NCBI GenBank assembly: GCA_964348525.1
Contig: CAYGCY010000004.1
Location: 1,886 to 53,334 of the forward strand
Length of the DNA: 51,449 bases
Origin: an uncultured Candidatus Saccharibacteria bacterium
Lineage (GTDB): Bacteria; Patescibacteriota; Minisyncoccia; Phycocordibacterales; Zambryskibacteraceae
Reading direction: 5' to 3'
Part shown: in pieces, positions 30,262-50,987 of the stretch
Layout of the letters: each line of letters begins with the position of its first letter
Numbering within the stretch: the first letter of the stretch is position 1
Notes under the pieces: generated by a model
Databases searched by the model: none
Told to the model about the DNA's origin: nothing
What the model saw: only the letters and a program-made list of their open reading frames with translations
Translations under genes and position numbers: made by a program

Positions 30262-30273
30262 CAAATAAACCGC

Positions 30274-30301
30274 TTTACAATACTAACAAATGTGATAAAG
30301 T
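30274..30301 (+). promoter_or_regulatory. Promoter-like TTTACA-N16-TAAAGT (TG-extended) ahead of 30342..30812
   Basis: CTTTACAATACTAACAAATGTGATAAAGT. The SD GGGAG lies 6 nt before the ATG. Confidence 0.45.
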
Positions 30302-30341
30302 ATTGTTAGATTTGATCCAACCACGCCTACGGGAGTAACTC

Positions 30342-30812
30342 ATGGAATTTCTGCGTGCAAGCGTTGACAGAGCAATCGTGATGACCCAGTACGACTTGAG
30401 AGGGTTTGGTCATCCGCTTGGAATTCGAATTACCAAGAAGCATCCGAAGTATCATCTCGCTTTGATGTGTAATTTCATGTCTTTCTGTTGTATGTCAGCA
30501 GAGAAAGGCAAACAGATTGACGGAGCTCTGCATTATACAGAAAGCACATTTGAGCAGTATCGGTCAATGTGCAAAGAGCTTGCGACATTTTGTGAGGGTT
30601 CCGAGAAAGAAGCAATTCAGCTTATCATCAAGGCAATGGCAAGACAGCACATGATGTTTCGCAGACAAATTCGTGCTGGACGGCTAGAGGAGAATAGGTA
30701 TTTTGCACCCGTTGTGAAGACGACAATCACAGGCAAAGTTCTGCTCTCGTTGGCAGAAGCGTTTGGCGTTAGCCTTGTGGTCAGGCGCGGGTGGATAGTT
30801 TCGGTGGGGTGA
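30342..30812 (+). CDS. Hypothetical Cys-rich cytoplasmic protein (cassette A1, intermediate GC)
   Basis: 156-aa ORF with an SD and its own terminator. No motif recognised. Confidence 0.6.
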   Translation: MEFLRASVDRAIVMTQYDLRGFGHPLGIRITKKHPKYHLALMCNFMSFCCMSAEKGKQIDGALHYTESTFEQYRSMCKELATFCEGSEKEAIQLIIKAMARQHMMFRRQIRAGRLEENRYFAPVVKTTITGKVLLSLAEAFGVSLVVRRGWIVSVG

Positions 30813-30818
30813 GAGATA

Positions 30819-30856
30819 CAACTGGCTAAGGAAAGCTTCCTAGCCAGTTTTGTTTT
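30819..30856 (+). terminator. Intrinsic terminator of cassette A1
   Basis: AACTGGCTAAGGAA-AGC-TTCCTAGCCAGTT followed by TTGTTTT. Confidence 0.7.
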
Positions 30857-30858
30857 AC

Positions 30859-30887
30859 TTTACAATATTGAAAGAGTATGATACAGT
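30859..30887 (+). promoter_or_regulatory. Promoter-like TTTACA-N17-TACAGT (TG-extended) ahead of 30938..31675
   Basis: CTTTACAATATTGAAAGAGTATGATACAGT shares the CTTTACAATA start with the A1 promoter. Confidence 0.45.
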
Positions 30888-30937
30888 TATTAAGGAAGCT
30901 TTTTAACTCATTTTCCAACTAGGCCCTAGGAGGGCAC

Positions 30938-31675
30938 ATGACGCTGAACAATCTGAAGGCCCGAGCCGACAAGGCTCGGAGTGTTCGCAACACGGTGGCG
31001 ATGGTTTTCGTGCTTTTCGGCATGATTCTCGCCTTCGTGTCGCCCCGCGATGCGCACGGTCAGACAACCGTCATCCGCACCAAGTCCGGCATGGTGGTGA
31101 GCGTCAACGTGCAGGACACGGGCAAGTGCGTTTGCGATACCGCGGTCGTGAAGAAGGCCGTGGCGCCGAAGCCGGTCATCAAGCCGGTTGTGCGCGCCAA
31201 GGCAGTCTCTGCTCCGGCGAAGCCGAAGGTGTCGTCGAGGGACAGCATTCTCTCGGCACTCCAGTTTTCGGCGGATTCGGCATCGGCCGCTCTGAAGGCG
31301 AAACTTGCTCGTGAAGCTCTCGGCGTTGCCGAGGCAAAGGACGACTCTGTGAAAGCAGAGGATGCCTTCAAGGGTCAGCCTGCACCGACTCAGCTTGTGT
31401 TTCCGCCGTCACCCATTCCGAGCAAGCTCCAGCTTGAGCATTCGGGGAAGGTGGCGGTCAACCTCAGCGGAAAGCTTGTGGTCGAACACAAGCGAAGCTG
31501 GAAGGGGCCGGCGGTCATTGCTGGCATCCTAGGAGCTGTCGCGGCGTACTGTGTGTACGAGAATTGTTTCGGACACACCACGAACGTCAAGACCGCGCCC
31601 CCTTCGAAGACTGGAGGTCCGGTGTGGGCTCCGAACGGCATTCGTGCGAGCTTTTCGGTCCCGATTCGGCCGTAG
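30938..31675 (+). CDS. GC-rich hypothetical membrane protein with an N-terminal signal/anchor, an Ala/Pro/Lys-rich linker and a C-terminal TM helix (cassette A2)
   Basis: 245-aa ORF. SD AGGAGGG. VAMVFVLFGMILAFV near the N-terminus and GPAVIAGILGAVAAYCVY near the C-terminus. Sample line 31141-31200 is 41/60 GC. Confidence 0.7.
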   Translation: MTLNNLKARADKARSVRNTVAMVFVLFGMILAFVSPRDAHGQTTVIRTKSGMVVSVNVQDTGKCVCDTAVVKKAVAPKPVIKPVVRAKAVSAPAKPKVSSRDSILSALQFSADSASAALKAKLAREALGVAEAKDDSVKAEDAFKGQPAPTQLVFPPSPIPSKLQLEHSGKVAVNLSGKLVVEHKRSWKGPAVIAGILGAVAAYCVYENCFGHTTNVKTAPPSKTGGPVWAPNGIRASFSVPIRP

Positions 31676-31693
31676 AGGAAATGAGAAGTAAAG

Positions 31694-31730
31694 AAAGGGC
31701 GTTGCGACCAGCACGGTCGCAACGCCCTTT
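31694..31730 (+). terminator. Intrinsic terminator of cassette A2
   Basis: AAAGGGCGTTGCGACC-AGCAC-GGTCGCAACGCCCTTT followed by AATTTTT. Confidence 0.75.
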
Positions 31731-31755
31731 AATTTTTAGCGAATTTTTAAAATTT

Positions 31756-32694
31756 TTAGCGCATATCTCTTCCTCCTCCAGCGCGTAAGTACATATAAAT
31801 ATCTTCAAGCGCTCTCACGCCGTCTCCTGCAGCGATATTATTCTGATGATAAAGCACGTCTGTTACGTCTCCTGCAGCCCATATTTTTTGATTGCTAGTG
31901 CGCTGTGTACGAGGGTCGATTTTTACTTGGCCCACATTATTTAAATCTACAAGACCAGCTAGAATTGAAGAATTAGGAATAAGACCAATTTCCACAAATA
32001 CTCCTTCTACCGGAATTTCTGTCATTTCACCAGTTCTTAAATCTTTATAAACAATTGATTTTACAAACTTGTCTCCTTTGATTTCTACAGGGTCTACGTT
32101 TAGTAGTCCTTTGAAGGTTGGGTTCTTTGAGACTGCCTCTACAGTCATTTCATCTGCTTTAAATCTGTCGCTATGCTGTAAAAGTGTGACTGAAGTACAG
32201 TAGGCGAGAAGCTGGGCAGATGTTTCAAATCCGGCATTACCTCCACCAATAACCGCAACATGTTTGCCTGAATAAAGTGGTCCATCGCATGAGGCGCAGT
32301 ACACAATGCCTTTATTTTCAAATTCTTTAGCTCCGGTGATATTCAGTTTTTTTCTAGAAGAGCCGGTACTTACTAAAAGAGTCTTTGCTGAAATATTTTT
32401 ACCATCAACCTCAATATTAAAACCGTCAGATGTTTCGGAAATCGCCAGTACTTTGTTTCCAAGTATGAGCTCAACGTCCTCGCCCGCGTATTCTCTCAAA
32501 TGTTTTTCAAAAATCTCACCCAATTGTGCACCGGAAATATGTGGAGTGCCTATCCAGTTTTGAATGTCTTGAGACTCATAGCTTTGCCCACCGAATGATT
32601 CTGTTATAAAAGCCGTCTTAAGTTTTTTTCTTGCTGCGTAAACGGCCGAAGAAACTCCCGCCGGTCCACCTCCTATAATTGCTAGTTCGTACAT
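31756..32694 (-). CDS. trxB: Thioredoxin-disulfide reductase
   Basis: IIGGGPAG, redox-active CASCDG, GGGNAG. 312 aa. Confidence 0.9.
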   Translation of the reverse strand: MYELAIIGGGPAGVSSAVYAARKKLKTAFITESFGGQSYESQDIQNWIGTPHISGAQLGEIFEKHLREYAGEDVELILGNKVLAISETSDGFNIEVDGKNISAKTLLVSTGSSRKKLNITGAKEFENKGIVYCASCDGPLYSGKHVAVIGGGNAGFETSAQLLAYCTSVTLLQHSDRFKADEMTVEAVSKNPTFKGLLNVDPVEIKGDKFVKSIVYKDLRTGEMTEIPVEGVFVEIGLIPNSSILAGLVDLNNVGQVKIDPRTQRTSNQKIWAAGDVTDVLYHQNNIAAGDGVRALEDIYMYLRAGGGRDMR

Positions 32695-32743
32695 TGTTTG
32701 TGAAGAATATCAAAAAACTCTCCAAAACAAAAACTTTGGCACA

Positions 32744-32770
32744 AAAAAGAGCCAAAATTGGCTCTTTTTT
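32744..32770. terminator. Bidirectional terminator downstream of ftsZ
   Basis: AAAAAAGAGCC-AAAATT-GGCTCTTTTTT. Confidence 0.75.
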
Positions 32771-32778
32771 GTGCTTCT

Positions 32779-33957: not shown

Positions 33958-34078
33958 GATTTTATTGGTAATTTATGGCTAAAAATAAAGATAATTTTCA
34001 CATTGCTGAATTTAGACTGTTCTTACTTTCGGCAATATTCGCGCCCATACTACTCGCTATCTCACAGCTTGCAACGTC

Positions 34079-34107
34079 TTGATGTAATTATTCTGGTGTG
34101 CTATAAT
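34079..34107 (+). promoter_or_regulatory. Near-consensus promoter TTGATG-N17-TATAAT with a TGC extended -10 (cassette B)
   Basis: CTTGATGTAATTATTCTGGTGTGCTATAAT. The SD GGAG lies 8 nt before the TTG start at 34152. Confidence 0.6.
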
Positions 34108-34151
34108 AAATTGTAGAAGTACTAATACACTCAAGCTACGGAGCGTGCATC

Positions 34152-34628
34152 TTGGTCAAGAAAGTCCTGTTGGTTCGCCACGGCAACTACTCTGGGGACG
34201 ATCTCACGGACGATGGTTTCAAGGCGTCACAGAAGCTGGCAGAGCGACTCCGTGTTGTTCTCGCTGAACATGTGGGCAAGATTGCCGTCGTTTCGTCCGC
34301 CACTCCGAGGGCAAGGCAAACGGCGGAAATCATCGAGATCGGTCTCAAGACTGGTCGCTTGGAGTTTCGTGATGAAATCTCTGACACGTGGCGCGTCGAT
34401 GAAATAACCGATGGCGCTAGCGGGCTGTACACGGAGAAACTCACTAACGGTGTCGACGAAATGGTTGACGTCGTTATTGTAGTGACCCATGACCCGTTCA
34501 TCAGAGAATTCATGGCGATTTTCCGTCGTGAATTCGAGAGGGGGCCGAACCAAGCGTTTGTGGACTATGCGTCAGCAGTCGTGTGCAACCGCGAGCTGAA
34601 GACAATCGGTCTTCTGACCGTTGAGTAG
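34152..34628 (+). CDS. Histidine phosphatase superfamily protein (SixA/PGAM-like), GC-elevated (cassette B)
   Basis: VLLVRHGNY (RHG catalytic motif), SSATPRARQTAEII, VVTHDPF. TTG start. Sample lines are 30-33/60 GC. Confidence 0.75.
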   Translation: MVKKVLLVRHGNYSGDDLTDDGFKASQKLAERLRVVLAEHVGKIAVVSSATPRARQTAEIIEIGLKTGRLEFRDEISDTWRVDEITDGASGLYTEKLTNGVDEMVDVVIVVTHDPFIREFMAIFRREFERGPNQAFVDYASAVVCNRELKTIGLLTVE

Positions 34629-34640
34629 TGTTCCCACCCA

Positions 34641-34675
34641 ATCTGCATCCGGACAACGGGTGCAGATTTTGTTTT
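34641..34675 (+). terminator. Intrinsic terminator of cassette B
   Basis: ATCTGCATCC-GGACAAC-GGGTGCAGAT followed by TTTTGTTTT. Confidence 0.75.
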
Positions 34676-34744
34676 ATATACACCCTTCAATTTAGAGCAA
34701 GTATTTAGCTTTTCCCAAGTTCGCGAGAAATTAAAGCGAGCTTT

Positions 34745-34862
34745 ATTCTCCGCCGTTCGTCTCGGAAGTTTTTCAGCACGGTATCCCGCCTTGGCGGGAT
34801 TGAAAAACTGAGAGACAGCAAACTTTTTCGCTGGAAAAAGTTATGCGTGAACGCCGGAGAAT
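34745..34862. other. Multi-hairpin structured element downstream of ftsA (function unknown)
   Basis: The outer pairing is ATTCTCCGCCGTTCG / CGTGAACGCCGGAGAAT. The inner hairpins are GTTTTTCA..ATCCCGCC-TT-GGCGGGAT..TGAAAAAC and AACTTTTTC-GCT-GGAAAAAGTT. Confidence 0.4.
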
Positions 34863-34877
34863 ATGGCGAGCGCCTCT

Positions 34878-36065: not shown

Positions 36066-36438
36066 TGGTCTTTAGGTGTAAAGGTAAGGAGATTTTCAGC
36101 AACTTCAAAAATTTCCTTTCTTGTTCATTCATTTTAGCGCTATGTTTAAGACCTTTCAAATGAAGGAGTGCGTGGATAAGCATATATTTCTCACATTCTT
36201 TTTCTGTAATGCCAAATTTTTTTGCATCTTTTTTTATTTGCTTCAAATTGAGAAAAATTTCTCCAGATTTCTTTGAGTATGGAAAAGACAATACATTAGG
36301 AATGTAGTCCTTTTTTCTGTATTGCTTGTTTAGTGAGAGGGCCAGCTTGTCGCTCGCAAAAACGACAGACAATTCATAGTCTTTTGGTAGAATCTTTTTC
36401 GCTATTTTTTCGAAGATTTTTTGCTTATCTTCTGCCAC
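36034..36438 (-). CDS. ybeY: rRNA maturation endoribonuclease YbeY
   Basis: HALLHLKGLKH matches the HxxxHxxGxxH zinc motif. 134 aa. The 3' end overlaps the ftsA start by 32 nt. Confidence 0.8.
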   Translation of the reverse strand: MAEDKQKIFEKIAKKILPKDYELSVVFASDKLALSLNKQYRKKDYIPNVLSFPYSKKSGEIFLNLKQIKKDAKKFGITEKECEKYMLIHALLHLKGLKHSAKMNEQERKFLKLLKISLPLHLKTNGKKKYSGRN

Positions 36439-36670: not shown

Positions 36671-36726
36671 AGATGCAAAACTTTAACATAAAGCCCGATT
36701 ATGGGCAATCTTGTATACAAAACCAG

Positions 36727-37902: not shown

Positions 37903-37904
37903 TT

Positions 37905-39238: not shown

Positions 39239-40312
39239 TTAAGCTTCTACAAAACTTAATGTTAATTTCTGATCTTTTGAATCAAATGTGACTATCTTGA
39301 AGTTGTAAACCTTTCCAAGCCCCAATTTTTCTCGAAGCTTTTCTTCAGAACCAAATTCAGATACATGTACGAGCCCTGCTACGCCCTCTTCTATTGAAGC
39401 GAGTGCTCCATGCTTGTTGAATTTGATTACAACACCCTTTACGATATCGCCTTTTTTGTATTTTTCTTCAGTACCCTGCCAAGGATTTGGTTTCAAAGCC
39501 TTGATAGAAAGAGAAATCTTTCCGTCTTTTATTTCTATAATCTTCACCTTTACTCTGTCTCCAACTTTGTAAACAGAGCGAGGGTTTTCAACGAGTGACC
39601 AGTCCATCTCTGAAATATGCACGAGCCCTTCAAGGCCGTCTTCTATTTTTACGAACACTCCGAAATCAACGGCTCCTGTTATTTCTCCTACAAACTCGTC
39701 TCCTACTGCGTACTTGTCTACCATTTCGCTTTTTGCTTTCTCTATCTCGCCCTTTTCAGAGAAAATGAGCTTACCTTCTTTTGGCAAAGCTGCGATTATG
39801 ATGACGTCCAAACTTTCTCCAACGAACTTCCTTAACTCATCAAGTATTTTGTCTTTATCTCCATCAGCAACTCTTGGGTAGTGCTCGGGCTTCAATTGTG
39901 AAGCAGGTAGGAACCCTTGAATTCCTTGCCAAGAGAGCATAAGCCCGCCCTTGTTTGCGTCTACTACCGATAGAGCAAAAAGTTTCTTGTCTCTTATAGC
40001 ATCATCCGCTTCTTGCCATATTTGCGCTTGCCTTGCTTCTTTTAGAGAAATTTCTATGTAGCCTTCTGGGTTGTTGAAGCCCACAACTTTGCCAGCAATA
40101 GTGTCGCCAACATTTACATTTTTTATGATGTCTCTCGCTTGTAAAAATTCACGACCAAAAATGATACCAGTACCAAATGGTGCTAGGTCTACATAAACAG
40201 CAGCTTTTTCAATTCCTATAACTTTGCCCTCTATTATGTCGTCCGCTAAAGGCGGGGTAGGGGCATCCGCGACGATTTTCTGCATCGCAGGATTTATTTT
40301 TATCTCTTTCAT
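39239..40312 (-). CDS. rpsA: 30S ribosomal protein S1-like protein (four S1 RNA-binding domains)
   Basis: Repeated S1 motifs: G.V..I....v.VDL..g..G.I, GLVHISE, GLVHVSEF. 357 aa. Confidence 0.85.
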   Translation of the reverse strand: MKEIKINPAMQKIVADAPTPPLADDIIEGKVIGIEKAAVYVDLAPFGTGIIFGREFLQARDIIKNVNVGDTIAGKVVGFNNPEGYIEISLKEARQAQIWQEADDAIRDKKLFALSVVDANKGGLMLSWQGIQGFLPASQLKPEHYPRVADGDKDKILDELRKFVGESLDVIIIAALPKEGKLIFSEKGEIEKAKSEMVDKYAVGDEFVGEITGAVDFGVFVKIEDGLEGLVHISEMDWSLVENPRSVYKVGDRVKVKIIEIKDGKISLSIKALKPNPWQGTEEKYKKGDIVKGVVIKFNKHGALASIEEGVAGLVHVSEFGSEEKLREKLGLGKVYNFKIVTFDSKDQKLTLSFVEA

Positions 40313-40319
40313 ATTTAGT

Positions 40320-40391
40320 GGCGCGATGCCCTACAATCCGAGCTTTTCCGAAAGGTTCAGAAAGGTTCGGATGGCAAGGGGATTACGCGCC
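40320..40391 (-). promoter_or_regulatory. Structured 5' leader of rpsA (candidate autoregulatory element)
   Basis: The minus-strand read is GGCGCG...ATCCGA ACCTTTCTGAACCTTTCGGAAAAGC TCGGAT...CGCGCC. It has nested complementary arms and ends 7 nt before the rpsA ATG. Confidence 0.4.
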
Positions 40392-40444
40392 GTTATTAAT
40401 GATTAATTCTTATAATTCATACGGAACGAACTACGGGATAGTAC

Positions 40445-40478
40445 AAAAAAAACAGCCAACCCGCAAGGGGCTGGCTGT
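40445..40478 (-). terminator. Intrinsic terminator of cassette C1
   Basis: Minus-strand ACAGCCAGCCCC-TTGC-GGGTTGGCTGT followed by TTTTTTTT. Confidence 0.8.
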
Positions 40479-40497
40479 CATGACGGAGTTCTCCTCG

Positions 40498-40779
40498 CTA
40501 TTCGGCCGTCTTTGTGTCAGGCCGTGTTTTGAGGAGCTCCATGATTGAGTCGCACTGTGCTTGTGTGACTCGTCCCTCGATGAGGGGGACCGCTCCGCCG
40601 AACGCTCTCGGGTCCGGCTGACACGTGACGCTGTCCGTAACCACCCGAACATAGCCGGGTCTGTTGGGGACAGGCTCCACCCTAACGAACTCGGCTGTTG
40701 CGAAGAAGACGAGTCCCAAGGCAAGAATGATGGCTACCTTGAGAACGTCGAAATCGCTCTCGCTCCTTTCTTTCGGCAT
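40498..40779 (-). CDS. GC-rich small bitopic membrane protein with a 2-Cys ectodomain (cassette C1)
   Basis: 93 aa. SD GGAG 8 nt upstream. TM helix VAIILALGLVFFATA. Cysteines at VTCQPD and AQCDS. Confidence 0.65.
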   Translation of the reverse strand: MPKERSESDFDVLKVAIILALGLVFFATAEFVRVEPVPNRPGYVRVVTDSVTCQPDPRAFGGAVPLIEGRVTQAQCDSIMELLKTRPDTKTAE

Positions 40780-40820
40780 AACTACACTCCGTGGTGTTGG
40801 GTACGCAAAGATCTTTTTAG

Positions 40821-40849
40821 ATTATTACACATTATTTTATATTTAGCAA
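40821..40849 (-). promoter_or_regulatory. Promoter-like TTGCTA-N16/17-TAATAAT (TG-extended) for cassette C1
   Basis: Minus-strand ATTTGCTAAATATAAAATAATGTGTAATAATC. Confidence 0.45.
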
Positions 40850-40850
40850 A

Positions 40851-40884
40851 TAAAACAAAACCCCCACCAGCAAGCTGGTGGGGG
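40851..40884 (-). terminator. Intrinsic terminator of cassette C2
   Basis: Minus-strand CCCCCACCAG-CTTG-CTGGTGGGGG followed by TTTTGTTTT. Confidence 0.8.
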
Positions 40885-40912
40885 ATGTGCCCTGTGTCGC
40901 CGGGCCGGCGTC

Positions 40913-41341
40913 CTAGCGCGCGAGGTCTCGTCTCACGTGGCTTTCGGGCCGGTAGACGTTGGTTCCTTGCGCAACGCGGTAGTCGTAGTCGGAGTTGTCG
41001 GCGAAGTTTGCCGAGGGACCGGCGCGTGAACTGGCGATGATGTCAACCGTCAAAACGTGGTCGGCGGTCGAGGTCGATTTGCGACCGGCCAAGACGGCCT
41101 GCACCTCCTTGCCGAGCACCGGCTTCATCGCGGTGAAGTTCTGCGGCGAGTCCGTCGACGAGCTGGCGCACTTCGGCGCGAGCCCGAGCTCGAGCGAGGC
41201 CGTGGCGACGAAATCGCACGGAACGTGCGAAGTCAGTACCATGACCTGCGGTTCCCCAGCGTTCGCCGGGGGAGCCGTTGCCATCGTCGCGAGAGCGAGA
41301 ACGGCGACGGCGGCCAAGAGTGCCGTGCGGGACCTGATCAA
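40913..41341 (-). CDS. GC-rich secreted protein with signal peptide and 2 Cys (cassette C2)
   Basis: I prefer the TTG start at 41341, with GGAGG 5 nt upstream. This gives (M)IRSRTALLAAVAVLALATMATAPPANA|GEPQ. The ORF-track ATG at 41440 lies inside the -35 box of the promoter. Sample line 41101-41160 is 40/60 GC. Confidence 0.65.
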   Translation of the reverse strand: MIRSRTALLAAVAVLALATMATAPPANAGEPQVMVLTSHVPCDFVATASLELGLAPKCASSSTDSPQNFTAMKPVLGKEVQAVLAGRKSTSTADHVLTVDIIASSRAGPSANFADNSDYDYRVAQGTNVYRPESHVRRDLAR

Positions 41342-41412
41342 GCATACCTCCGCGCTAGGGAAGTGATTGGAAAGAACGTCCTCGTGGACGTCCGATCCAG
41401 AGGCGAAACTAT

Positions 41413-41440
41413 ATAATACACCTTTTGTACATTTTGTCAA
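41413..41440 (-). promoter_or_regulatory. Near-consensus promoter TTGACA-N16-TATTAT (TGT-extended) for cassette C2
   Basis: Minus-strand ATTTGACAAAATGTACAAAAGGTGTATTAT. Confidence 0.6.
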
Positions 41441-41460
41441 ATATAGAAATTATATAAATG

Positions 41461-41529
41461 AAAACACCAGCTCATCCGCTGGTGTTGTTTATCTGCTTTG
41501 GGGCGACGGCGTTTGAGCGCCGTCGCCCC
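41461..41529 (-). terminator. Two tandem hairpins ending the C3 transcript
   Basis: Minus-strand GGGGCGACGGCG-CTCAAA-CGCCGTCGCCCC, then AACACCAGC-GGATGA-GCTGGTGTT followed by TTTC. Confidence 0.65.
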
Positions 41530-41940
41530 GCACAGTGTTCCGCCGTAGTTTGCGAGGCGTTGCCTCGTAGCCATAGTTGAGTTTGGCAGACGAGAGTCCT
41601 TAGACCCCGTGCATGCCCAATTCCCGACTGGCCGTTCGTTACCCGGCGGATGGTGGTTGGCTCCGGTGTTAGGCGGAGCGGTCGATTATCGTGAGGTGTC
41701 CCTCAGGACCATGATTGCCATGTGCGAGCCCAGCGAGTTGTCCGCTCATTCTGTGTTAGAGCGAACCTCTTTTCTTGGGTGTACGACATTCCTCCGTTTG
41801 AGGCCTAGGCTCTAGTGGCCCCGAGCAATCGAACGGCAACCAGCACGGGTCAGCCGTTCATCCAAATGGATGAGTTCGTGGGCGCACTTAGTTGTGCCTC
41901 GAATCTCATCCGTTGAGTGCGACGGTGTCGGCCGGTACGG

Positions 41941-42033
41941 CTAGTCGCCGTAGCGGCCGGCGCCGGTGCGCGAGTTGGTCTTGAGCGTGGAATAATCGTC
42001 GGCGATACGAACGAGGGGCGGGGAACGAGTCAT
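41941..42033 (-). CDS. Candidate 30-aa peptide MTRSPPLVRIADDYSTLKTNSRTGAGRYGD (cassette C3)
   Basis: ATG preceded by GTGAGGTTCC (GAGG 4 nt upstream). 24 of 30 third positions are G/C, far higher than in the overlapping 62-aa frame. Below the ORF-track size cutoff. Confidence 0.3.
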   Translation of the reverse strand: MTRSPPLVRIADDYSTLKTNSRTGAGRYGD

Positions 42034-42106
42034 GGAACCTCACGACGTTTGAAGGTGCTATGTCTGTGCCGTGGGCAGGATTTCCACCCCGCACTTTGAC
42101 CTCTCT

Positions 42107-42134
42107 AGTATAGCAGACAATAGGTATTTGTCAA
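42107..42134 (-). promoter_or_regulatory. Near-consensus promoter TTGACA-N16-TATACT with a TGC extended -10 (cassette C3)
   Basis: Minus-strand ACTTGACAAATACCTATTGTCTGCTATACT. Confidence 0.6.
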
Positions 42135-42243
42135 GTATGTAAATTAAATCAGCCATTTAGCACTTGGCTATTTACATATTTTATGGCTTAAATTAGCCAT
42201 AAAAACTATGGTCAATTTGTGCCGTTTTTGTTATAATACTTGT

Positions 42244-42867
42244 ATGGTAATCACATATCATGGGCTAGAATTTTTCAAAGTTACTTTTGGAGATACCACC
42301 ATAGCCTTTAATCCAATCTCGAAAGACTCAAAGCTAAAAGGACCACATTTTGGCGCCGATGTCGCTCTTATTTCCTTAAAAGATAGAGATATGAATGGAG
42401 CGGATGCGGTTTCAAGAGGAGAAAAACAGGCTTTTGTTATAGATGGTCCGGGTGAATATGAAATAGGAGGCCTGTTTGTGAAAGGCTTCACAAGTAAAAG
42501 CAATTATGGAGGAGAAGAAAGACTCAATACCATATATCTAGTAAATCTGGAAAACATGAATCTTTGTTTTTTGGGCGCGCTTTCTCACAAAGATCTTGAT
42601 CCAAAGGTAACGGAAGAACTTGAAGACATAGACATTTTGTTTACTCCAATAGGAGGCGAAGGAGTTTTGAATTCTCTTGAAAGTTATAAAATGGCAGTAA
42701 AACTTGAACCATCTCTTATTATTCCAATGCATTATGATGAGAAATCTCTGAAGGCTTTTCTCAAAGACGCGGGAGAGGAAAAAATGGCACCTGTTGATAA
42801 ACTCACTCTGAAGAAAAAAGATTTGGAAGGCAAGGAAAGCGACGTTGTGATTTTGAAAGTAGAGTAA
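42244..42867 (+). CDS. MBL-fold metal-dependent hydrolase (UPF0173-like)
   Basis: MVITYHGLEFFKVTFGDTTIAFNP... The ATG at 42244 lies 6 nt after a TATAAT box (42232-42237), so the mRNA may be leaderless. The ORF-track start at 42208 would include that box. Confidence 0.75.
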   Translation: MVITYHGLEFFKVTFGDTTIAFNPISKDSKLKGPHFGADVALISLKDRDMNGADAVSRGEKQAFVIDGPGEYEIGGLFVKGFTSKSNYGGEERLNTIYLVNLENMNLCFLGALSHKDLDPKVTEELEDIDILFTPIGGEGVLNSLESYKMAVKLEPSLIIPMHYDEKSLKAFLKDAGEEKMAPVDKLTLKKKDLEGKESDVVILKVE

Positions 42868-43213: not shown

Positions 43214-43222
43214 CGAATAAAG

Positions 43223-45688: not shown

Positions 45689-45698
45689 AATTTCGTTT

Positions 45699-45875
45699 GG
45701 ATATGTTATTTCAAAATCAACGGCCACTCGTCTTAAAATTTAAAAATAACCCAAGCTTCATAAACGAAAAACACCAGAACTCGTCCCGTTAGAACGGGAC
45801 TCAGACGCCTGGTGTTTTTCTATTGCGCTAAGGTTATTTTGAAATATCCTCATGAGCTTTTGAAATAACATATCC
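45699..45875 (+). repeat. ~180-nt long-hairpin structured intergenic element, copy 2 (family shared with 15474-15663)
   Basis: Perfect 18-bp outer arms GGATATGTTATTTCAAAA / TTTTGAAATAACATATCC. Inner arms AAAATAACC / GGTTATTTT and GAAAAACACCAG / CCTGGTGTTTTTC. The apex is GTCCCGTT-AG-AACGGGAC. Confidence 0.75.
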
Positions 45876-45916
45876 TCACTCTAAAATACTAAAAAGTATT
45901 GTAGAATATATAAGGT

Positions 45917-47221
45917 ATGCAAATAAGCAAATTTCAAATTGCTATTCTTATCTTGTTTGGTCTTGCTATAGTGGGAGGCGTTATTGCTTTCTCTGTTTAT
46001 AAAGGATCAGGAGGACAAACGATTGATCTATCTGTGTGGGGAGTAATGCCTCAAACGACTTGGAATGCTTGGTATTCTTCTAGCCCAATCGCCCAAAACA
46101 ATCTGTACAGGATTACCTATACAACTGTTTCGGAACAAAATTTTGACAATGAACTCATCAATGCGCTAGCGGAAGGCAGGGGGCCTGACATAGTGATAGC
46201 TTTTCACGATAGGCTTTTGAAAAACCAGACCAAATTACTTCCGATTCCATATACGTCTTTTTCTAAAAGAGATTATCAAAATACATTTATAGATGCTTCT
46301 TCTGCACTAATGACGCCTGAGGGAGAAATGGCGGTGCCACTTTTGATAGACCCACTAGTCCTCTATCACAACAAAGATACATTCGCGAGCTATTCTTTGG
46401 TAGAGCCTCCAACTCTTTGGGAACAGATGTACCCGCTTGCACAGGGAATGACTGTCAAAGATCCAAAGAGTGGCAACATAGTGAAGCCAGCGGTGCCTTT
46501 GGGCAGTTTTTCAAATATTTTGTACGCCAAAGATATTTTGGCCACGATGATTTTTCAGGCCGGTGGTAAAATCGTTTCTGATACAGAGGGTTTTATAACC
46601 GCAACTTTAAGCGATTCTTTTGGAGCTCCGTATCCACCCGCCAATTCCGCGCTCTTGTTCTTTACAGAATTTTCTAATCCTGCGAAAGTTTTTTATACAT
46701 GGAACAGATCGCTTTCAGATTCGCTCTCTAAATTTTCTGCAGGGGATTCGGCTATGTATGTAGGGTATGCATCTGACTTAAGAAAAATAAAAGACAAAAA
46801 TCCTAATTTGGTTTTTGACGCTTCCTTTCTGCCTCAAGCAACTGGGGCAACAAAAGCTATTACATACGGCAAGATGCTTTCTATGGCTGTGCCGAGGGGC
46901 ACTGAAAAGTGGAGCTCTGCATTTGGGGCTATTTTTGAGATGATGTCTCCGCAATCTGTTGATGGGCTTTATCAGACGCTTCGACTTCCTCCTGCGAGAA
47001 GAGATTTACTCAAAAATAGCCCCGAAGACCCATTTGAGGCGGTATTTTTTGACTCAGCCATACGCGCATTTGCTTGGAAAGACCCCGATACAGACTCCAC
47101 TTCGGCTATATTTCAAAACATGATAGATTCTGTAACATCAGGCAGAGTGCGGATAGAAGATGCAGTATTTACTGGGCAAAAAGAATTGCAAGCTGTAATA
47201 TCAACTTATAAAACAAGATGA
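45917..47221 (+). CDS. Membrane-anchored extracellular solute-binding-protein-like protein (tentative)
   Basis: 434 aa with an N-terminal anchor IAILILFGLAIVGGVIAF. The SBP-like layout is an impression only. The stop overlaps the next start (ATGA). Confidence 0.7.
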   Translation: MQISKFQIAILILFGLAIVGGVIAFSVYKGSGGQTIDLSVWGVMPQTTWNAWYSSSPIAQNNLYRITYTTVSEQNFDNELINALAEGRGPDIVIAFHDRLLKNQTKLLPIPYTSFSKRDYQNTFIDASSALMTPEGEMAVPLLIDPLVLYHNKDTFASYSLVEPPTLWEQMYPLAQGMTVKDPKSGNIVKPAVPLGSFSNILYAKDILATMIFQAGGKIVSDTEGFITATLSDSFGAPYPPANSALLFFTEFSNPAKVFYTWNRSLSDSLSKFSAGDSAMYVGYASDLRKIKDKNPNLVFDASFLPQATGATKAITYGKMLSMAVPRGTEKWSSAFGAIFEMMSPQSVDGLYQTLRLPPARRDLLKNSPEDPFEAVFFDSAIRAFAWKDPDTDSTSAIFQNMIDSVTSGRVRIEDAVFTGQKELQAVISTYKTR

Positions 47222-47622
47222 AAATTTTAGGCCAAACATTTGTTATTTTGTTTCTTGCAGTAGTTTTGGTTTCTCCAGTTCTGGCTAGCGCACAAATATA
47301 CCGCCTAGAGCCTCTCGTAGTTTGTGGGTACAAAGATATGCCAGCGCAAGATCAGCAGTGCAAATTCCCACACCTGATACTCTTTGTGAAAAATCTCATA
47401 AAAGATTTGGTACTGATTGCCTTTCCTCTGACGGCCGTAACGTTTGCTTGGGCGGGGTTTCTCATCCTCACTTCAGGTGGAGATAAGGGGAAGCTTGAAA
47501 AAGGTAGAGGGATGCTCATAAAGGTTGGGATAGGTTTTGCGTGGATAGTGGGTGCGTATATTTTGGTGACGTTTATAATAAATACATTCGTTAAGTCGGG
47601 CTCGATAGTTAATTTGCTATAA
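47218..47622 (+). CDS. TrbC/VirB2-like (T4SS-pilin-family) small membrane protein, paralog 1
   Basis: Signal peptide, then helix-charged loop-helix: LIAFPLTAVTFAWAGFLILTSGGDKGKLEKGRGMLIKVGIGFAWIVGAYILVTFI. Confidence 0.7.
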   Translation: MKILGQTFVILFLAVVLVSPVLASAQIYRLEPLVVCGYKDMPAQDQQCKFPHLILFVKNLIKDLVLIAFPLTAVTFAWAGFLILTSGGDKGKLEKGRGMLIKVGIGFAWIVGAYILVTFIINTFVKSGSIVNLL

Positions 47623-47623
47623 A

Positions 47624-48064
47624 ATGAAAAAAATACATCTAATAATTTTGGCGCTCATAGTTTCAAGTTTTGTGTTTTCAAGTGTCTTTGCTCAGACCGG
47701 CGGAGGTACTGCAGGCCAGCCAACAGGCGGAGGAACAGCGAACCAACCAACAGGTGGAGGCACGGCCAATGAAGGCTCTACTAATATACGAATAGGGAAT
47801 CCTTTTAAAGGTGCTGGAGAAGATGGTAATTTGTTAGGCCTGATTTACGTTATTCTCGATAAGGCAGTAAAGCCAATAGGGGGAGTGATAGTGGTCATCA
47901 TGATAATTTATTCAGGATTTCTATTTGTTACTGCAAGGGGTAGTGAAGATAAAATATCTGAAGCCAGAAGGAATTTTACCTATACGGCAATAGGTGCGGC
48001 GATACTTTTGGGTTCTGTAGCTCTCGCAAAAATGATAGAAGCCACCATAAAATCTCTACAATAA
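47624..48064 (+). CDS. TrbC/VirB2-like pilin-family protein, paralog 2 (Gly-rich repeat N-terminal region)
   Basis: Signal peptide. GGGTAGQPTGGGTANQPTGGGTANEG. GGVIVVIMIIYSGFLFVTARGSEDKISEARRNFTYTAIGAAILLGSVAL. Confidence 0.7.
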   Translation: MKKIHLIILALIVSSFVFSSVFAQTGGGTAGQPTGGGTANQPTGGGTANEGSTNIRIGNPFKGAGEDGNLLGLIYVILDKAVKPIGGVIVVIMIIYSGFLFVTARGSEDKISEARRNFTYTAIGAAILLGSVALAKMIEATIKSLQ

Positions 48065-48065
48065 A

Positions 48066-49007
48066 GTGAAAAACGTAAAATCATTTCAATACATTCTTGC
48101 AATTGGAGTAGTAATTTTACCTATAGTTCTCTTCGCGGAAACTTCTCCATTTGGAGATCCTGCAAGCTCTCAAACTTTTAATATAAAAACCATACCGACT
48201 GGAGGCCCAATAAAGACGGCTACTTCAGTTCCAAGCGGTGGGGCTATTAACACAGGTGCTTCTACCACCGCAGGAGGCCAGATACAAACAGGCACTTCTA
48301 CTACCGCGGGAGGCAAGATACAGACGGGTGGATCCGTCACGGGAGGTGGCTCTGTTATGAGTGGCGGAGGGATTCGTTCGGGCAATCTTATAAGAACCGT
48401 CTATTACATTTTTTCTGGAGGGACAATTCCTAGGGCAGGTGGGTCTATTGAATCTGGTGGAAGTATTGCAACCGGAGGAGGGTGCGTAGAGTACGCCAAA
48501 AAAACGGTAATAGATTATGACACGGTGGAATCATGGGACGATGAAACTGGTCAGCCGTATTTTAAAGTGATAGGACAGCACCAAGAAAATGATACGACAA
48601 GGTGTTTAAAATTTGCCAGTGATGTACTTGGACCAACTAACCCATTCATTCAATCTGGTGGCGCTATCAGTACTGTAAATGATTCAAACAGATCGGCTTT
48701 TTCGTTTTTCGGTTCGCCTTTTGTAGAAACCCCAAAAACATTTAAAGAATTTATTTCCTTGCTTATTGATCTCATAAGAATAGTAATACCTTTGACCGTT
48801 GTGATGTCCTTATGGTTCTTCTTCTGGGGCCTTACAAGATTTATTAGAAATTCTGGTGACGAAAATAAAGAGCAGGAAGGTAAGGACCTCATGATATGGG
48901 GGACTCTCGCTCTATTTGTGATGGTGTCTGTTTATGGGCTGTTGAATCTTTTGTACGCAAGTGCGTTTGGAGGTAGCATATCTGGACTTCCTTTACTTCC
49001 ACAATAA
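48066..49007 (+). CDS. TrbC/VirB2-like pilin-family protein, paralog 3, with a ~230-aa N-terminal extension
   Basis: GTG start and a signal peptide. Degenerate GG-x-I-x-T-G repeats. The C-terminus is IPLTVVMSLWFFFWGLTRFIRNSGDENKEQEGKDLMIWGTLALFVMVSVYGLL. Confidence 0.7.
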   Translation: MKNVKSFQYILAIGVVILPIVLFAETSPFGDPASSQTFNIKTIPTGGPIKTATSVPSGGAINTGASTTAGGQIQTGTSTTAGGKIQTGGSVTGGGSVMSGGGIRSGNLIRTVYYIFSGGTIPRAGGSIESGGSIATGGGCVEYAKKTVIDYDTVESWDDETGQPYFKVIGQHQENDTTRCLKFASDVLGPTNPFIQSGGAISTVNDSNRSAFSFFGSPFVETPKTFKEFISLLIDLIRIVIPLTVVMSLWFFFWGLTRFIRNSGDENKEQEGKDLMIWGTLALFVMVSVYGLLNLLYASAFGGSISGLPLLPQ

Positions 49008-49423
49008 TGAAAAAAATACTAATAATCACACTTGTAGTTTCTTTAGCCTTGCCTCTAGCCTTTGCCTTTGCTGATCAGACTGGTACTGGGAGAACAACGA
49101 CGGGCCCCACTTTTCCAGGGGGGACCACTTATGGGAGGACAATAGATTGTTATGGCGGAAATATACAGGGGATTTTAATATGTGTGGGGCAACTTTTTGA
49201 AAGGCTTATTCCTATTACTGTTGGGCTCGCTCTCCTATATTTTATTTGGGGTGTGTTTAAAATAATTCGAGCGCAGGGCGACACCGGAAAAATTGAAGAG
49301 GGTAGAAAAATTGTTTTCTGGGGGCTCATTGCTCTTTTTGTGATGGTGTCGATTGGGGGACTAATTGCCTTTATCTACGGAGATTTCTTAGGAGGAATAC
49401 CAAACACCATCCCCACAAATTAG
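49007..49423 (+). CDS. TrbC/VirB2-like pilin-family protein, paralog 4
   Basis: Signal peptide. ITVGLALLYFIWGVFKIIRAQGDTGKIEEGRKIVFWGLIALFVMVSIGGLIAF. Confidence 0.7.
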   Translation: MKKILIITLVVSLALPLAFAFADQTGTGRTTTGPTFPGGTTYGRTIDCYGGNIQGILICVGQLFERLIPITVGLALLYFIWGVFKIIRAQGDTGKIEEGRKIVFWGLIALFVMVSIGGLIAFIYGDFLGGIPNTIPTN

Positions 49424-49503
49424 CCTTTTTATCCCCATATCTAATCAATATTCTCCTCTTTAAGTTATAATAATTGAAGCCTATTAAAGGTTAAATATAA
49501 ATT

Positions 49504-49869
49504 ATGAAAAAATTAATTGGAATTACTTCAGGTGCGATGCTTCCTATGCTTGCTTTGGCACAGACCAATCCAGACCTTAGGAATGTAGATACCTTGTTGA
49601 CCAACATTGGAGAAATAATCAACAGTGCCCTACCTATCTTGGTAGCTGCAGCACTTTTGTTCTTCTTTTATGGTCTAGCACGCTTTATTCTAGCTTCAGG
49701 CGGAGACGAAGATGCTAAAAAAGCTGGTAAACATATCATGGTTTGGGGAGTAGTAGCTCTCTTCGTGATGGTGTCAGTTTGGGGCCTAGTATCATTCATT
49801 GGAAATGCTTTGGGCATTCAGCAAGGTCAGTCGCTTCCTAACGTTCCTCGTGTAAACGACATCAGATAG
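49504..49869 (+). CDS. TrbC/VirB2-like pilin-family protein, paralog 5
   Basis: Signal peptide. LPILVAAALLFFFYGLARFILASGGDEDAKKAGKHIMVWGVVALFVMVSVWGLVSF. Confidence 0.7.
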   Translation: MKKLIGITSGAMLPMLALAQTNPDLRNVDTLLTNIGEIINSALPILVAAALLFFFYGLARFILASGGDEDAKKAGKHIMVWGVVALFVMVSVWGLVSFIGNALGIQQGQSLPNVPRVNDIR

Positions 49870-49887
49870 CTTTTTGGAAAGACCGAA

Positions 49888-50145
49888 ATGGTTGAATTCA
49901 TAAAGAAAGTAGATTCGGTTATTCTAAACCCAATCATAATACTTGGATTTGCCGTCGCGATGATGGTGTTTCTTTGGGGAGTGTTTCAGTTTATCCGAAA
50001 TCCTGCAGACGAAGGGAACAGAAAGGAGGGACAAAGAAATATTATGTGGGGCCTTTTGGGGCTTCTAATAATGTTTGGGGCAAAAAGTATTATAAAGATT
50101 GTATTAGGTACTTTCGGAGTTACTGATTTGGGTTTTCCATTTTAG
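49888..50145 (+). CDS. TrbC/VirB2-like pilin-family protein, paralog 6 (core only, no obvious signal peptide)
   Basis: IIILGFAVAMMVFLWGVFQFIRNPADEGNRKEGQRNIMWGLLGLLIMFGAKSII. Confidence 0.65.
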   Translation: MVEFIKKVDSVILNPIIILGFAVAMMVFLWGVFQFIRNPADEGNRKEGQRNIMWGLLGLLIMFGAKSIIKIVLGTFGVTDLGFPF

Positions 50146-50168
50146 GTTTAGACAGAAATAAAATAATA

Positions 50169-50230
50169 TAAAGCAAGGTGCCTCATCACGGAGAGATATA
50201 CCGCGCTCCTAAATGAGGCACTTTGCTTTA
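50169..50230. other. 18-bp-stem hairpin with a 26-nt loop at the junction between the pilin operon and GC island D
   Basis: TAAAGCAAGGTGCCTCAT - CACGGAGAGATATACCGCGCTCCTAA - ATGAGGCACTTTGCTTTA (one G-T pair). Confidence 0.6.
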
Positions 50231-50240
50231 TATAAAAAAG

Positions 50241-50278
50241 AAATACCCCCATTCCGTTGTAACGGAATGGGGGTATTT
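50241..50278 (-). terminator. Intrinsic terminator of cassette D
   Basis: AAATACCCCCATTCCGTT-GT-AACGGAATGGGGGTATTT, with a T-run on the minus strand (CTTTTTT). Confidence 0.8.
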
Positions 50279-50286
50279 CGTTTCTT

Positions 50287-50892
50287 CTACGGACAGGTTT
50301 CGCTGAGCGCCACCTGCCCGCCACTTCTGAACTTGAACCTCAGACTGGTCGTGCGACCGGCCGTGACCCGTGGATCGTCCACCGTGGTCGCGATGGACCC
50401 ATGGTCCGTCGTAATCCACAGCGAGTCTCCGGGGGTTCCGAAGATGTCCCATCTCGTCTTGCAGGCGGGATTGAGGGGGATTAGCGCCCCCTCCTCGTTC
50501 GGATCGAGGTCCTGTACCACAGGCGCCTTGGTGACGCGCGCCCTTGAAACAGGCGCGGACGTCGTCACGGGCGCGACCGCGTTCTTTGCGGCCTCGGCCT
50601 TCAACTTCGGCCACAGGCCGTAGTAGAAACCGATGCCGAGAATCGCGATGGTCAGGGCGATCGAAATGAACGCTCCGATTTCGAGGCGTCGGCTGTTCAG
50701 CCAGTTGCCGAACGCCCGCGTGCGACCGACGACTGCCGGCCACCATACGCGGATGTTCCGCGCGATGAACCAGACGGCGCCGATTGCGAACAGGATGGCG
50801 AGGGCCGAAGCCCAGCCAATCCAGCCGAGCCAAATGCCGAGGACGACAACAATCGCCGTCACGATGGGGAGCAGGAACAGAAAGAGTACCAT
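50287..50892 (-). CDS. GC-rich membrane protein with 4 predicted TM helices plus a ~95-aa C-terminal domain containing 2 Cys (cassette D)
   Basis: I prefer the ATG at 50892, with GGAGG 7 nt upstream (MVLFLFLLPIVTAIVVVLGIWLGW...). The longer ORF-track start at 50961 would overlap the promoter at 50949-50977, downstream of its -35 box (50972-50977). Sample line 50701-50760 is 42/60 GC. Confidence 0.7.
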   Translation of the reverse strand: MVLFLFLLPIVTAIVVVLGIWLGWIGWASALAILFAIGAVWFIARNIRVWWPAVVGRTRAFGNWLNSRRLEIGAFISIALTIAILGIGFYYGLWPKLKAEAAKNAVAPVTTSAPVSRARVTKAPVVQDLDPNEEGALIPLNPACKTRWDIFGTPGDSLWITTDHGSIATTVDDPRVTAGRTTSLRFKFRSGGQVALSETCP

Positions 50893-50948
50893 TTGATCGC
50901 CTCCAAGGGCGTGGGTAGAAGAAACGAATTTGTAAGAGCTCTGTGTAT

Positions 50949-50977
50949 ATGATAGCACCAAGAGCCTTATTTGTCAA
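50949..50977 (-). promoter_or_regulatory. Near-consensus promoter TTGACA-N17-TATCAT with a TGC extended -10 (cassette D)
   Basis: Minus-strand ACTTGACAAATAAGGCTCTTGGTGCTATCAT shares ACTTGACAAATA and TGCTAT with the C3 promoter. Confidence 0.6.
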
Positions 50978-50987
50978 GTACCCAAAT

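Follow-up and report, generated by a model that had tools for sequence, protein, structure and literature searches.

A stretch of 51,449 nucleotides from an uncultured Candidatus Saccharibacteria bacterium (assembly GCA_964348525.1, contig CAYGCY010000004.1, positions 1,886 to 53,334 of the forward strand), referred to here as the window, carries several short, GC-rich gene units, or cassettes, inserted between core genes of a backbone of lower GC content. A comparison anchored on FtsZ placed this DNA among the Paceibacteria/Parcubacteria as a 'Zambryskibacteria'-like lineage, and the top species representatives in GTDB share about 76% FtsZ identity with it. The overall GC content of the window is 0.43. 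The GC-rich patches reported in a first-pass annotation, which was made from the sequence alone, were confirmed by a sliding GC profile that gave values of 0.57 at positions 30701-31725 (patch A), 0.54 at 34126-34650 (patch B), 0.58 at 40426-42100 (patch C) and 0.62 at 50251-50925 (patch D). A minor patch at 17626-17850 has a GC content of 0.52. All units with an open reading frame (ORF) are organized in the same way: a near-consensus sigma70 promoter is followed by a Shine-Dalgarno sequence, a GC-rich ORF and a long hairpin terminator. This common layout had been described before and was borne out by reading of the sequence and by consensus scans.

Patch A starts at the 3' end of a tRNA-Val(GAC) gene (30189..30262, + strand) and includes two units in the + orientation. 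Unit A1 (30274..30856) consists of the putative promoter TTTACA-16-TGaTAAAGT (30274-30301), an ORF that codes for a 156-amino acid ORFan (30342-30812) and a terminator hairpin (30820-30849) followed by a T-tract. Unit A2 (30859..31730) has the promoter TTTACA-17-TGaTACAGT, the Shine-Dalgarno sequence AGGAGG, an ORF of 245 amino acids (30938-31675) and a 17-bp terminator (31694-31730). Unit B (34079..34668, + strand) is located antisense between ftsA and ftsZ, and its promoter, TTGATG-17-TGcTATAAT, precedes an ORF of 158 amino acids (34152-34628) and a terminator (34640-34668). The three units in patch C are all on the - strand. Unit C1 (40451..40849) includes the promoter TTGCTA-17-TGtAATAAT (40849-40821), an ORF of 93 amino acids (40498-40779) and a terminator (40479-40451), while unit C2 (40861..41440) includes the promoter TTGACA-16-TATTAT (41440-41413), the Shine-Dalgarno sequence GGAGG, an ORF of 142 amino acids (40913-41341) with a TTG start at 41341, and a terminator (40884-40861). 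Unit C3 (41463..42134) has the promoter TTGACA-16-TGcTATACT (42134-42107) and a terminator (41486-41463). Unit D (50237..50977, - strand) has the promoter TTGACA-17-TGcTATCAT (50977-50949), the Shine-Dalgarno sequence GGAGG, an ORF of 201 amino acids (50287-50892) with an ATG start at 50892, and a terminator at about 50237-50283. Like patch A, it adjoins the 3' end of a tRNA gene, in this case tRNA-Leu(TAG) (51137..51219, - strand). The minor patch corresponds to a unit, referred to as the 17.5-kb unit (17538..17850, + strand), that includes a TTGACA-16-TATTAT promoter, a perfect 11-bp hairpin and a terminator.

A promoter consensus scan, in which 12 positions of sigma70-like hexamers were scored over 37.5 kb, gave its highest scores (11/12) at C3, C2 and the 17.5-kb unit only; the promoter of B scored 10/12 and has, in addition, the TG element. 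The exact arrangement TTGACA-N13-15-TGnTA occurs only at C3 and D. The promoters of the 17.5-kb unit and C2 are nearly identical, also in the spacer. The terminator stems are GC-rich, perfect and 9-17 bp long, and they are followed by a run of T residues. Both kinds of elements are predicted, from their sequences, to be active. When the boundaries of the units were compared, the promoter cores were the only recurring module. No repeats or motifs were shared among the boundaries, and a repeat search of the window did not find long direct repeats touching the cassettes.

The deviant composition extends to the codon usage. The GC content of third codon positions (GC3) was determined in the reading frames located downstream of Shine-Dalgarno sequences and was compared to that of 28 backbone genes (mean 0.357, standard deviation 0.038). 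The values for A2 (0.73), B (0.64), C1 (0.68), C2 (0.76) and D (0.77-0.81) are 7.5-12 standard deviations higher, and a strong codon-phase GC signal was detected in these five ORFs. The overall GC contents of A2 and D are 0.61 and 0.63. A1 is only mildly raised and is close to native composition (GC 0.47, GC3 0.50). The preference at four-fold degenerate codons is inverted with respect to the backbone, as can be seen in the usage of CCG for Pro (59% vs. 12%), TCG for Ser (58% vs. 11%), ACG for Thr (47% vs. 10%) and CTC (57% vs. 25%). The GC contents at the first and second codon positions and the amino acid composition are also shifted, the GARP fraction being 0.30-0.34 in the cassettes and 0.24 in the backbone. 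Since this codon usage is of the type found in high-GC genomes, the cassettes would probably be of ultimately lateral origin. The first-pass annotation had gone further and proposed repeated capture of genes from a high-GC donor, possibly the host of an episymbiotic cell. In this explanation, the units are recent and independent captures that were placed under a native promoter and have not yet ameliorated. The codon usage, the shifts at the other two codon positions and in amino acid composition, and the location of A and D at tRNA 3' ends are all as such captures would have them. The results described below make this explanation quite unlikely.

The products of the units are diverse. For A1, A2 and C1, the searches covered family libraries and contigs of viruses. 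A1 did not match any family in Pfam, PHROGs, PADLOC or TIGR-type libraries, and its lone match in IMG/VR, a glycosyltransferase, shares just the seeded 8-mer and was rejected as spurious. In the A2 protein, a signal peptide or N-terminal anchor is followed by a Cys pair, a linker rich in Ala, Pro and Lys and, at the C-terminus, a transmembrane helix with a CxxxxC tail behind it, an arrangement that suggests an anchored surface protein of the cell envelope. C1 is an N-terminally anchored protein with a Cys pair, and C2 is a predicted secreted protein that also has a Cys pair. The D protein consists of transmembrane helices, a linker and an ectodomain with a Cys pair. The cysteine pairs had been noted in the first-pass annotation and can be read from the four translations. 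An AlphaFold2 model of D (mean pLDDT 65, about 80 in the ectodomain) predicts a disordered linker and a beta-sandwich ectodomain. A Foldseek search with this model produced only weak matches to cupins or beta-sandwiches (best E value of about 0.01 in PDB and of about 1e-3, with a low TM-score, in BFVD), none of which was an informative structural neighbor. A2, C1, C2 and D appear to be lineage-restricted, fast-evolving small proteins with a predicted location in the envelope, and they may act at the interface with a host or a phage. Searches with PADLOC did not identify defence systems, PHROGs did not provide a meaningful match, and no relatives of D or A2 were present on IMG/VR viral contigs.

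B had been annotated as a histidine phosphatase, and this assignment is in agreement with a match to Pfam His_Phos_1 (E = 5.6e-7, 29.9 bits, gathering cut-off 21.7) and with the presence of the catalytic motifs RHG at residues 9-11 and THD, which includes the second catalytic His, near residue 112. The alignment to TIGR00249 (SixA) is full-length (E = 6e-7), and its 29 bits are below the cut-off of 74.5 that defines the equivalog. B is a short SixA-like histidine phosphatase.

Comparison with closely related strains showed how the units evolve. D was compared to the allele in L082, a strain with 95.5% identity, and C1, C2 and C3 were compared to those in L088, a strain related at 95% average nucleotide identity (ANI). 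The changes between the two D alleles comprise 12 synonymous and 6 non-synonymous codons, with 13 out of 19 substitutions at third positions; the -35 and -10 hexamers are kept while the spacer between them is variable, and a change in the terminator stem is compensatory (TT..AA to CC..GG). C1 differs by 10 synonymous and 4 non-synonymous codon changes, with 11 out of 15 substitutions at third positions. These results indicated that C1 and D are under purifying selection. C2 showed the opposite pattern. Only 3 of its changes are synonymous while 9 are non-synonymous, and a 7-nt deletion in L088 shifts the reading frame; selection on C2 is therefore relaxed or the gene is decaying. The S1-C1 intergenic region (40360-40367) is the least conserved with respect to L088, with 80.5% identity and 54 extra nucleotides in L088.

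C3 is different in nature. It consists of about 450 nt of GC-rich DNA that is almost without codon-phase signal and lacks an ORF, with the exception of a possible one of 30 amino acids (41941-42033). This ORF is the small peptide candidate of the first-pass annotation; it remains a possible ORF, and neither C3 nor the patch at 17.5 kb has a convincing long one. C3 is 96.7% conserved in L088, where the indels are of 1-2 nt. The 17.5-kb unit has no credible ORF either and contains an A-rich 24-nt tandem pair (17598-17645). The folding z-scores are -7.1 for C3 and -5.5 for the 17.5-kb unit with respect to shuffled sequences. An nhmmer search for both units in 80 related loci did not identify homologues. 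At gathering thresholds, a search of the whole window against Rfam found only tRNAs and a bacterial class A RNase P RNA (12595-12932, - strand, 113.5 bits), all of them outside the patches; the location of the latter explains a mild rise in GC near 12.4-12.9 kb. Relaxed searches of 40300-42250 and 17400-17900 returned only noise at E values up to 1-5. The possibility that C3 is a conserved structured RNA was tested against the differences between strains and was rejected, since 4 pairs are kept via wobble, 6 are broken and none is compensated. For C3 there are two readings, a non-coding RNA or a gene that has decayed. The 17.5-kb unit is a candidate small RNA and, like C3, is probably non-coding or decayed.

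The features of these two units raise the question of whether the patches as a whole are structured-RNA genes that are GC-rich for folding, as the RNase P RNA of the window is, with ORFs that are accidental. High GC does yield spurious overlapping ORFs in all the patches, and the coding sequences of the cassettes have more stable folds than those obtained by synonymous shuffling. In contrast, the codon-phase GC signal, the divergence of C1 and D, dominated by synonymous changes, the protein-level orthologues of B and D described below, the Pfam domain in B, the lack of Rfam families even in relaxed searches and the lack of compensatory changes in C3 all argue against it. This explanation is already refuted for the protein units by the synonymous-dominated divergence of C1 and D and by the protein orthologue of D, and as a general account of the patches it is highly improbable. 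The units are instead heterogeneous, comprising constrained genes, one decaying gene, a phosphatase and ORF-less units, which does not agree with the single uniform system that the first-pass annotation had envisioned.

A trivial explanation would be that pieces of a high-GC genome were spliced into the contig during assembly. The source is a short-read metagenome assembly, and D is also found on contigs of only 771-972 bp. However, these short D contigs reach the backbone on both sides at 100% identity. The Logan contigs L084 and L085, each assembled from a single run, are 100% identical to positions 50195-51166 and cross both D junctions, and two other per-run contigs of 2.95 kb, L093 and L094, span tRNA-Val-A1-A2-trxB-ftsZ and both A junctions. 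L088, which originated in another sample, keeps the order of patch C throughout, with 93-97% identity, as in the backbone, and the same arrangement was found in other samples (L082, L086, L088, L090, L095). One sequencing run (SRR8863434, PRJNA512237) was traced to a publication (PMC11549363), which did not give the habitat. Furthermore, the boundaries of the patches coincide with the promoters and terminators. Because independent per-run contigs and a sibling strain cross the junctions, the patches are not assembly chimeras and this explanation is refuted in practice. The strain pairs provided another result. Cassette DNA diverges at the backbone rate between strains related at 95% ANI, which is not expected of recent captures, and allele replacement was not seen.

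The distribution of the cassettes was studied in 80 syntenic loci (L001-L080) of related species. Synteny of trxB-ftsZ-ftsA and S1-lactamase is kept in 57-81 loci, and the gaps at these places are normally about 100-300 bp. No cassette protein was found in the 80 loci, an absence that would fit recent acquisition. The ftsA-ftsZ, S1-lactamase and trxB/tRNA-Val gaps are variable hot spots, and their occupants differ by lineage. The ftsA-ftsZ gap (33958-34877 in the window) is about 100-200 bp in most species and 500-1276 bp in about 17, and the enlarged gaps hold unrelated small ORFs, some of them GC-elevated (e.g., L031 and L002). The S1-lactamase_B gap (40313-42207) varies from 46 to 2503 bp. 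Both gaps are insertion hot spots throughout the Paceibacteria.

Searches for B, C2 and D in 5.8 billion proteins (word-indexed), complemented for D by an exhaustive HMMER search of 1.84 billion representatives, led to sister species and strains. B has a single homologue, P0003 (47% identity), which is encoded between ftsZ and ftsA in L086. The single homologue of C2 is the L088 allele. The HMMER search found a single full-length homologue of D, with about 40% identity. The orthologue of D in L090/L095 is located between tRNA-Leu(TAG) and type IV secretion system (T4SS)-pilin genes, and there is a further variant in L096. The consensus promoter, a block in the 5' untranslated region (5'UTR) with the sequence agctcttcacatcgtttcttctac and a motif after the stop codon are conserved in the D orthologues. 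These near-exhaustive protein searches did not find homologues of B, C2 or D outside the same loci of Paceibacteria relatives, and all the relatives found (L082, L084-L088, L090, L093-L096) carry the cassette at the same locus; no copies turned up elsewhere in a genome or on mobile elements.

These findings are difficult to reconcile with recent capture. There is no donor homologue of B, C2 or D in the protein collections searched, the viral collections and PHROGs are equally empty, the promoter and 5'UTR of D are orthologous between species, and orthologues of B and D occupy the same loci in species whose synonymous divergence from the window is saturated. What stands of the original proposal is that the units are self-contained and look foreign; the recency of the capture and a high-GC donor or host are not supported. 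Comparison of sibling genomes, suggested at that time, showed that the sites are empty or differently occupied in most relatives and that the orthologues of B and D are at the same loci in sister species. The first-pass annotation had also conceded that the cassettes would be ancient residents if close homologues were universally present in related genomes. The orthologues of B and D nearly bring about that situation, but they are not universal among relatives.

Genes of a comparable type are present in another clade. Seven species of another Paceibacteria clade have a GC-rich gene between trxB and tRNA-Val with the layout signal peptide, ectodomain, linker, C-terminal transmembrane helix and Cys tail, here called A2-type; tRNA-Val flanks A2-type genes in L016, L038, L043 and L049. 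The A2 unit in the window matches these genes in architecture and position. The ectodomain families of the A2-type genes are interleaved on a crude neighbor-joining (NJ) tree of FtsZ and FtsA.

The comparisons between species showed that high GC has persisted over a long time. Between the window and L090 or L086, the third-base identity at backbone four-fold sites is 0.27-0.38, while 0.26-0.33 is expected at saturation, and the GC content at these backbone sites is 0.19-0.43. In spite of this saturation, the GC3 of D is 0.81 both in the window and in L090, and its four-fold sites at conserved residues have GC contents of 0.83 and 0.70 in the two species. The backbone retains about 7% of the ancestral signal, equivalent to about 26% per lineage, so that neutral decay from an ancestral four-fold GC of 1.0 would have reached about 0.48. 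A neutral relic of a captured gene would keep at most that value. Since the D values are above this neutral maximum, a directional force holds the GC of D high. The homologous A2-type pairs L038/L049 and L016/L043 have a four-fold GC of 0.54-0.71 across saturated divergence. Both D and the A2-type fam1 pair have a synonymous identity above that of the backbone and a protein identity below it.

The nature of the directional force was considered next. Translational selection is unlikely because the highly expressed backbone genes S1, L33, IF-2 and ClpB are not GC3-rich (0.28-0.40) and the codons favored in the cassettes are of the NCG type. Selection on the transcript was evaluated by the folding z-score of each coding unit with respect to its own synonymous-codon shuffles. 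The scores were -4.95 for D, -3.3 for its L090 orthologue, -3.6 for A2 and -6.0 for the A2-type gene in L016, and the pooled mean was -2.26 for the GC-rich units and -0.45 for the backbone genes (one-sided Mann-Whitney p = 0.002). Since the fold signal is not universal, two A2-type genes being above zero (z = +0.3 and +1.1), the evidence for selection on the transcript is only suggestive. The main alternative to it is GC-biased gene conversion (gBGC) at recombination-prone surface loci. gBGC raises GC3 in recombining bacterial genes (PMC4450053); in our reading, the effects described in that study are modest shifts in average GC3, far below the rise seen in the cassettes.

gBGC is also part of another explanation, in which alleles for surface proteins are repeatedly replaced at these hot spots, either by homologous recombination among Paceibacteria or from an unsampled GC-rich extrachromosomal pool, with gBGC keeping their GC high. 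The presence of different genes at the same sites in different lineages, the interleaved A2-type ectodomain families, the excess of synonymous identity in D and the A2-type fam1 pair, the known effect of gBGC on bacterial GC3 (PMC4450053) and the mostly intra-phylum horizontal gene transfer (HGT) of Patescibacteria (PMC12455944) are consistent with such exchange. Nevertheless, a gBGC effect of modest size would not take GC3 from 0.3 to 0.8, the cassettes were not found in another genomic context or on mobile elements, the strain pairs do not show allele replacement, and the NJ tree is too crude to establish incongruence between families and hosts. We regard this explanation as fairly unlikely.

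With moderate confidence, we favor the interpretation that the units are long-resident, individually insulated, moron-like genes, most of which code for fast-evolving envelope proteins, and that their GC-rich composition is actively maintained. Each unit would be a monocistronic operon in which a near-consensus sigma70 promoter, in many cases of the extended -10 type, precedes a short 5'UTR, a GGAGG Shine-Dalgarno sequence and a GC-rich body, and its strong intrinsic terminator would insulate the essential neighbors (trxB, ftsZ/ftsA, S1 and pilins). Entry would be older than the divergence of the strains for every cassette that was compared to a sibling and, for B and D, older than the divergence of the species. 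The synonymous GC of D and the A2-type genes would have been held far from the AT-biased equilibrium of the genome by the directional force, which may be selection on transcript stability or structure, or GC-biased repair or conversion at recombination-prone surface-protein loci. A more general form of this interpretation is possible but doubtful. The Paceibacteria may keep a class of insulated, strongly promoted small genes, most of them for envelope proteins, whose GC3 of about 0.7-0.8, compared to some 0.35 in the background, is actively held up on the time scale of speciation by selection on the transcript or by locus-restricted GC-biased repair or conversion. The composition would then be a regulated, gene-specific trait in these reduced genomes in addition to passively recording gene transfer. 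A bolder variant, in which the expression of the units is adapted to a high-GC partner cell, is very unlikely.

Several observations weigh against the interpretation that we favor. That GC3 stays at about 0.8 is unexpected and open to test, but it rests on few genes and few four-fold sites (47 in D, 30 in B and 41-66 in the A2-type pairs). The maintenance is not uniform, the four-fold GC of B being 0.67 in the window and 0.43 in the sister species. The synonymous identity of D is 0.47 where 0.31 is expected, and the D alleles could share an ancestor younger than that of the backbone. As to the transcript, the two A2-type genes mentioned above have no mRNA-structure signal, the scores of the backbone controls in L090 and L086 tend to be negative as well, and the z-scores could be inflated by local compositional heterogeneity. 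Homology between the A2 of the window and the A2-type genes found in the other clade is not demonstrable, as the best match is weak (E = 0.018 in a tiny database) and confined to the transmembrane region. C2 is decaying, so selection does not maintain every unit. Finally, the promoters and terminators are predictions from consensus matches and conservation.

The first-pass annotation knew of no described system with this organization, but phage morons, a concept of Hendrix and Juhala, share the promoter-gene-terminator layout and the atypical GC (PMC2920897). As in morons, each unit is a single gene with its own predicted sigma70 promoter and intrinsic terminator, and its expression would be independent of its neighbors; it is an extra gene inserted between otherwise adjacent, conserved genes; its GC is unlike that of the flanks; there are hot spots where different genomes have different units at one site; and the products are often surface-related or fitness factors. 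The differences are that the units described here lie between core cellular genes (trxB, ftsZ/ftsA, S1, tRNAs) of a chromosome of the Candidate Phyla Radiation (CPR) rather than in a phage or prophage, that they are GC-richer instead of GC-poorer than their surroundings, that they were seen in one genomic context only, and that they have been inherited vertically in different species without losing their composition. Because of the cellular chromosome, the single context and the vertical retention, the units share the architecture of morons without belonging to them.

Other known systems share fewer features. tRNA-linked islands and the hypervariable 'flexible' islands of the Prochlorococcus/SAR11 type encode surface functions. 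The location of A and D at tRNA 3' ends, the atypical composition, the lineage-specific ORFans, the many envelope proteins and the variable occupants at a conserved site resemble such islands. Unlike them, the units measure 0.6-1.7 kb, a promoter and a terminator insulate every single gene, tRNA genes do not adjoin B and C, and there is neither an integrase nor an att-like duplication bracketing A or D, where the tRNA 3' ends compared to the distal flanks scored at chance, which is a further point against recent capture. Integron cassettes and clusters of attC sites lacking integron-integrases (CALINs) are also scattered or arrayed small single-gene units of foreign composition with many ORFans. 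However, they are usually promoterless, with attC ends and IntI present or nearby, while every unit in the window has a promoter, the hairpins are perfect-stem terminators with T-tracts, and the boundaries do not share a motif. Pfam scans and the boundary comparison did not identify attC sites, integrases, transposases or reverse transcriptases in the window, as had been noted before for the first three. The possibility that the units are targets of a diversity-generating retroelement was rejected, as the window lacks a reverse transcriptase domain and a template/variable repeat pair.

The composition of a xenologous gene decays toward that of its host, a process known as Lawrence-Ochman amelioration. 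The cassettes resemble ameliorating xenologues in that their GC and codon usage differ from those of the genome at each of the three codon positions, but the deviation is undecayed across saturated backbone synonymous sites and no donor lineage could be identified. The values of D do not fit amelioration, and those of B are partly consistent with decay. In Patescibacteria, HGT has been found to be mostly intra-phylum and non-recent, and ancient transfers are missed as their composition ameliorates (PMC12455944). The cassettes behave in the opposite manner.

Compositional outliers are routinely taken as recent HGT and, in CPR/Patescibacteria, as genes stolen from the host. This shortcut fails for the cassettes, which are ORFans at fixed loci with no detectable donor, at least D keeping its extreme synonymous GC through a divergence that randomizes neutral sites in adjacent genes. 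If this is general, GC-based calls of HGT and genomic islands in CPR genomes would be systematically misdated, and streamlined genomes would hold a special expression class that combines a consensus promoter, a GC-rich structured mRNA and a strong terminator with fast-evolving surface proteins. In these organisms, which cannot yet be cultured, attachment to the host or evasion of phages would most plausibly be mediated by such proteins, and the units would allow a clean test in nature of whether mRNA selection or biased gene conversion holds genes off mutational equilibrium.

The surroundings of the cassettes have features of their own. Next to D, the last 21-26 nt, approximately, of a tRNA-Lys(CTT) gene (51234-51259) are directly repeated at 51386-51411, 133 bp downstream (L083 9427-9660). 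This repeat served as a positive control in the search for att-like duplications; it matches at 24/26 positions, and 0/2000 shuffles reach its score. The repeats enclose a GC-rich insert of about 125 nt with a perfect hairpin, and L090 has a weaker version. The pair has the appearance of an attL/attR-like scar of site-specific integration, which argues that an integrase-type insertion has occurred in the tRNA cluster; this att-like duplication beside D speaks in favor of recent capture. On the other side of D, the region 45917-50145 codes for small T4SS-pilin/TrbC-like proteins (PF18895) and a solute-binding protein, and it is conserved in L090. The trxB-ftsZ gap is only 88 bp in the window, while in L086 it contains an ORF for a 313-amino acid membrane/coiled-coil protein (553-1494, - strand) that is GC-rich in part (0.51-0.59). 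At the beginning of the window there is a giant ORF of 4075 amino acids (300-12527, + strand) with a Peptidase_S74 domain (endosialidase intramolecular chaperone) at residues 3601-3654, an unusually high GC at second codon positions (GC2, 0.55) and a low GC3 (0.30); its product is probably a giant surface or fiber protein. A second large ORF (24799-28275, 1158 amino acids), with faint matches to fn3, has a similar GC2 bias.

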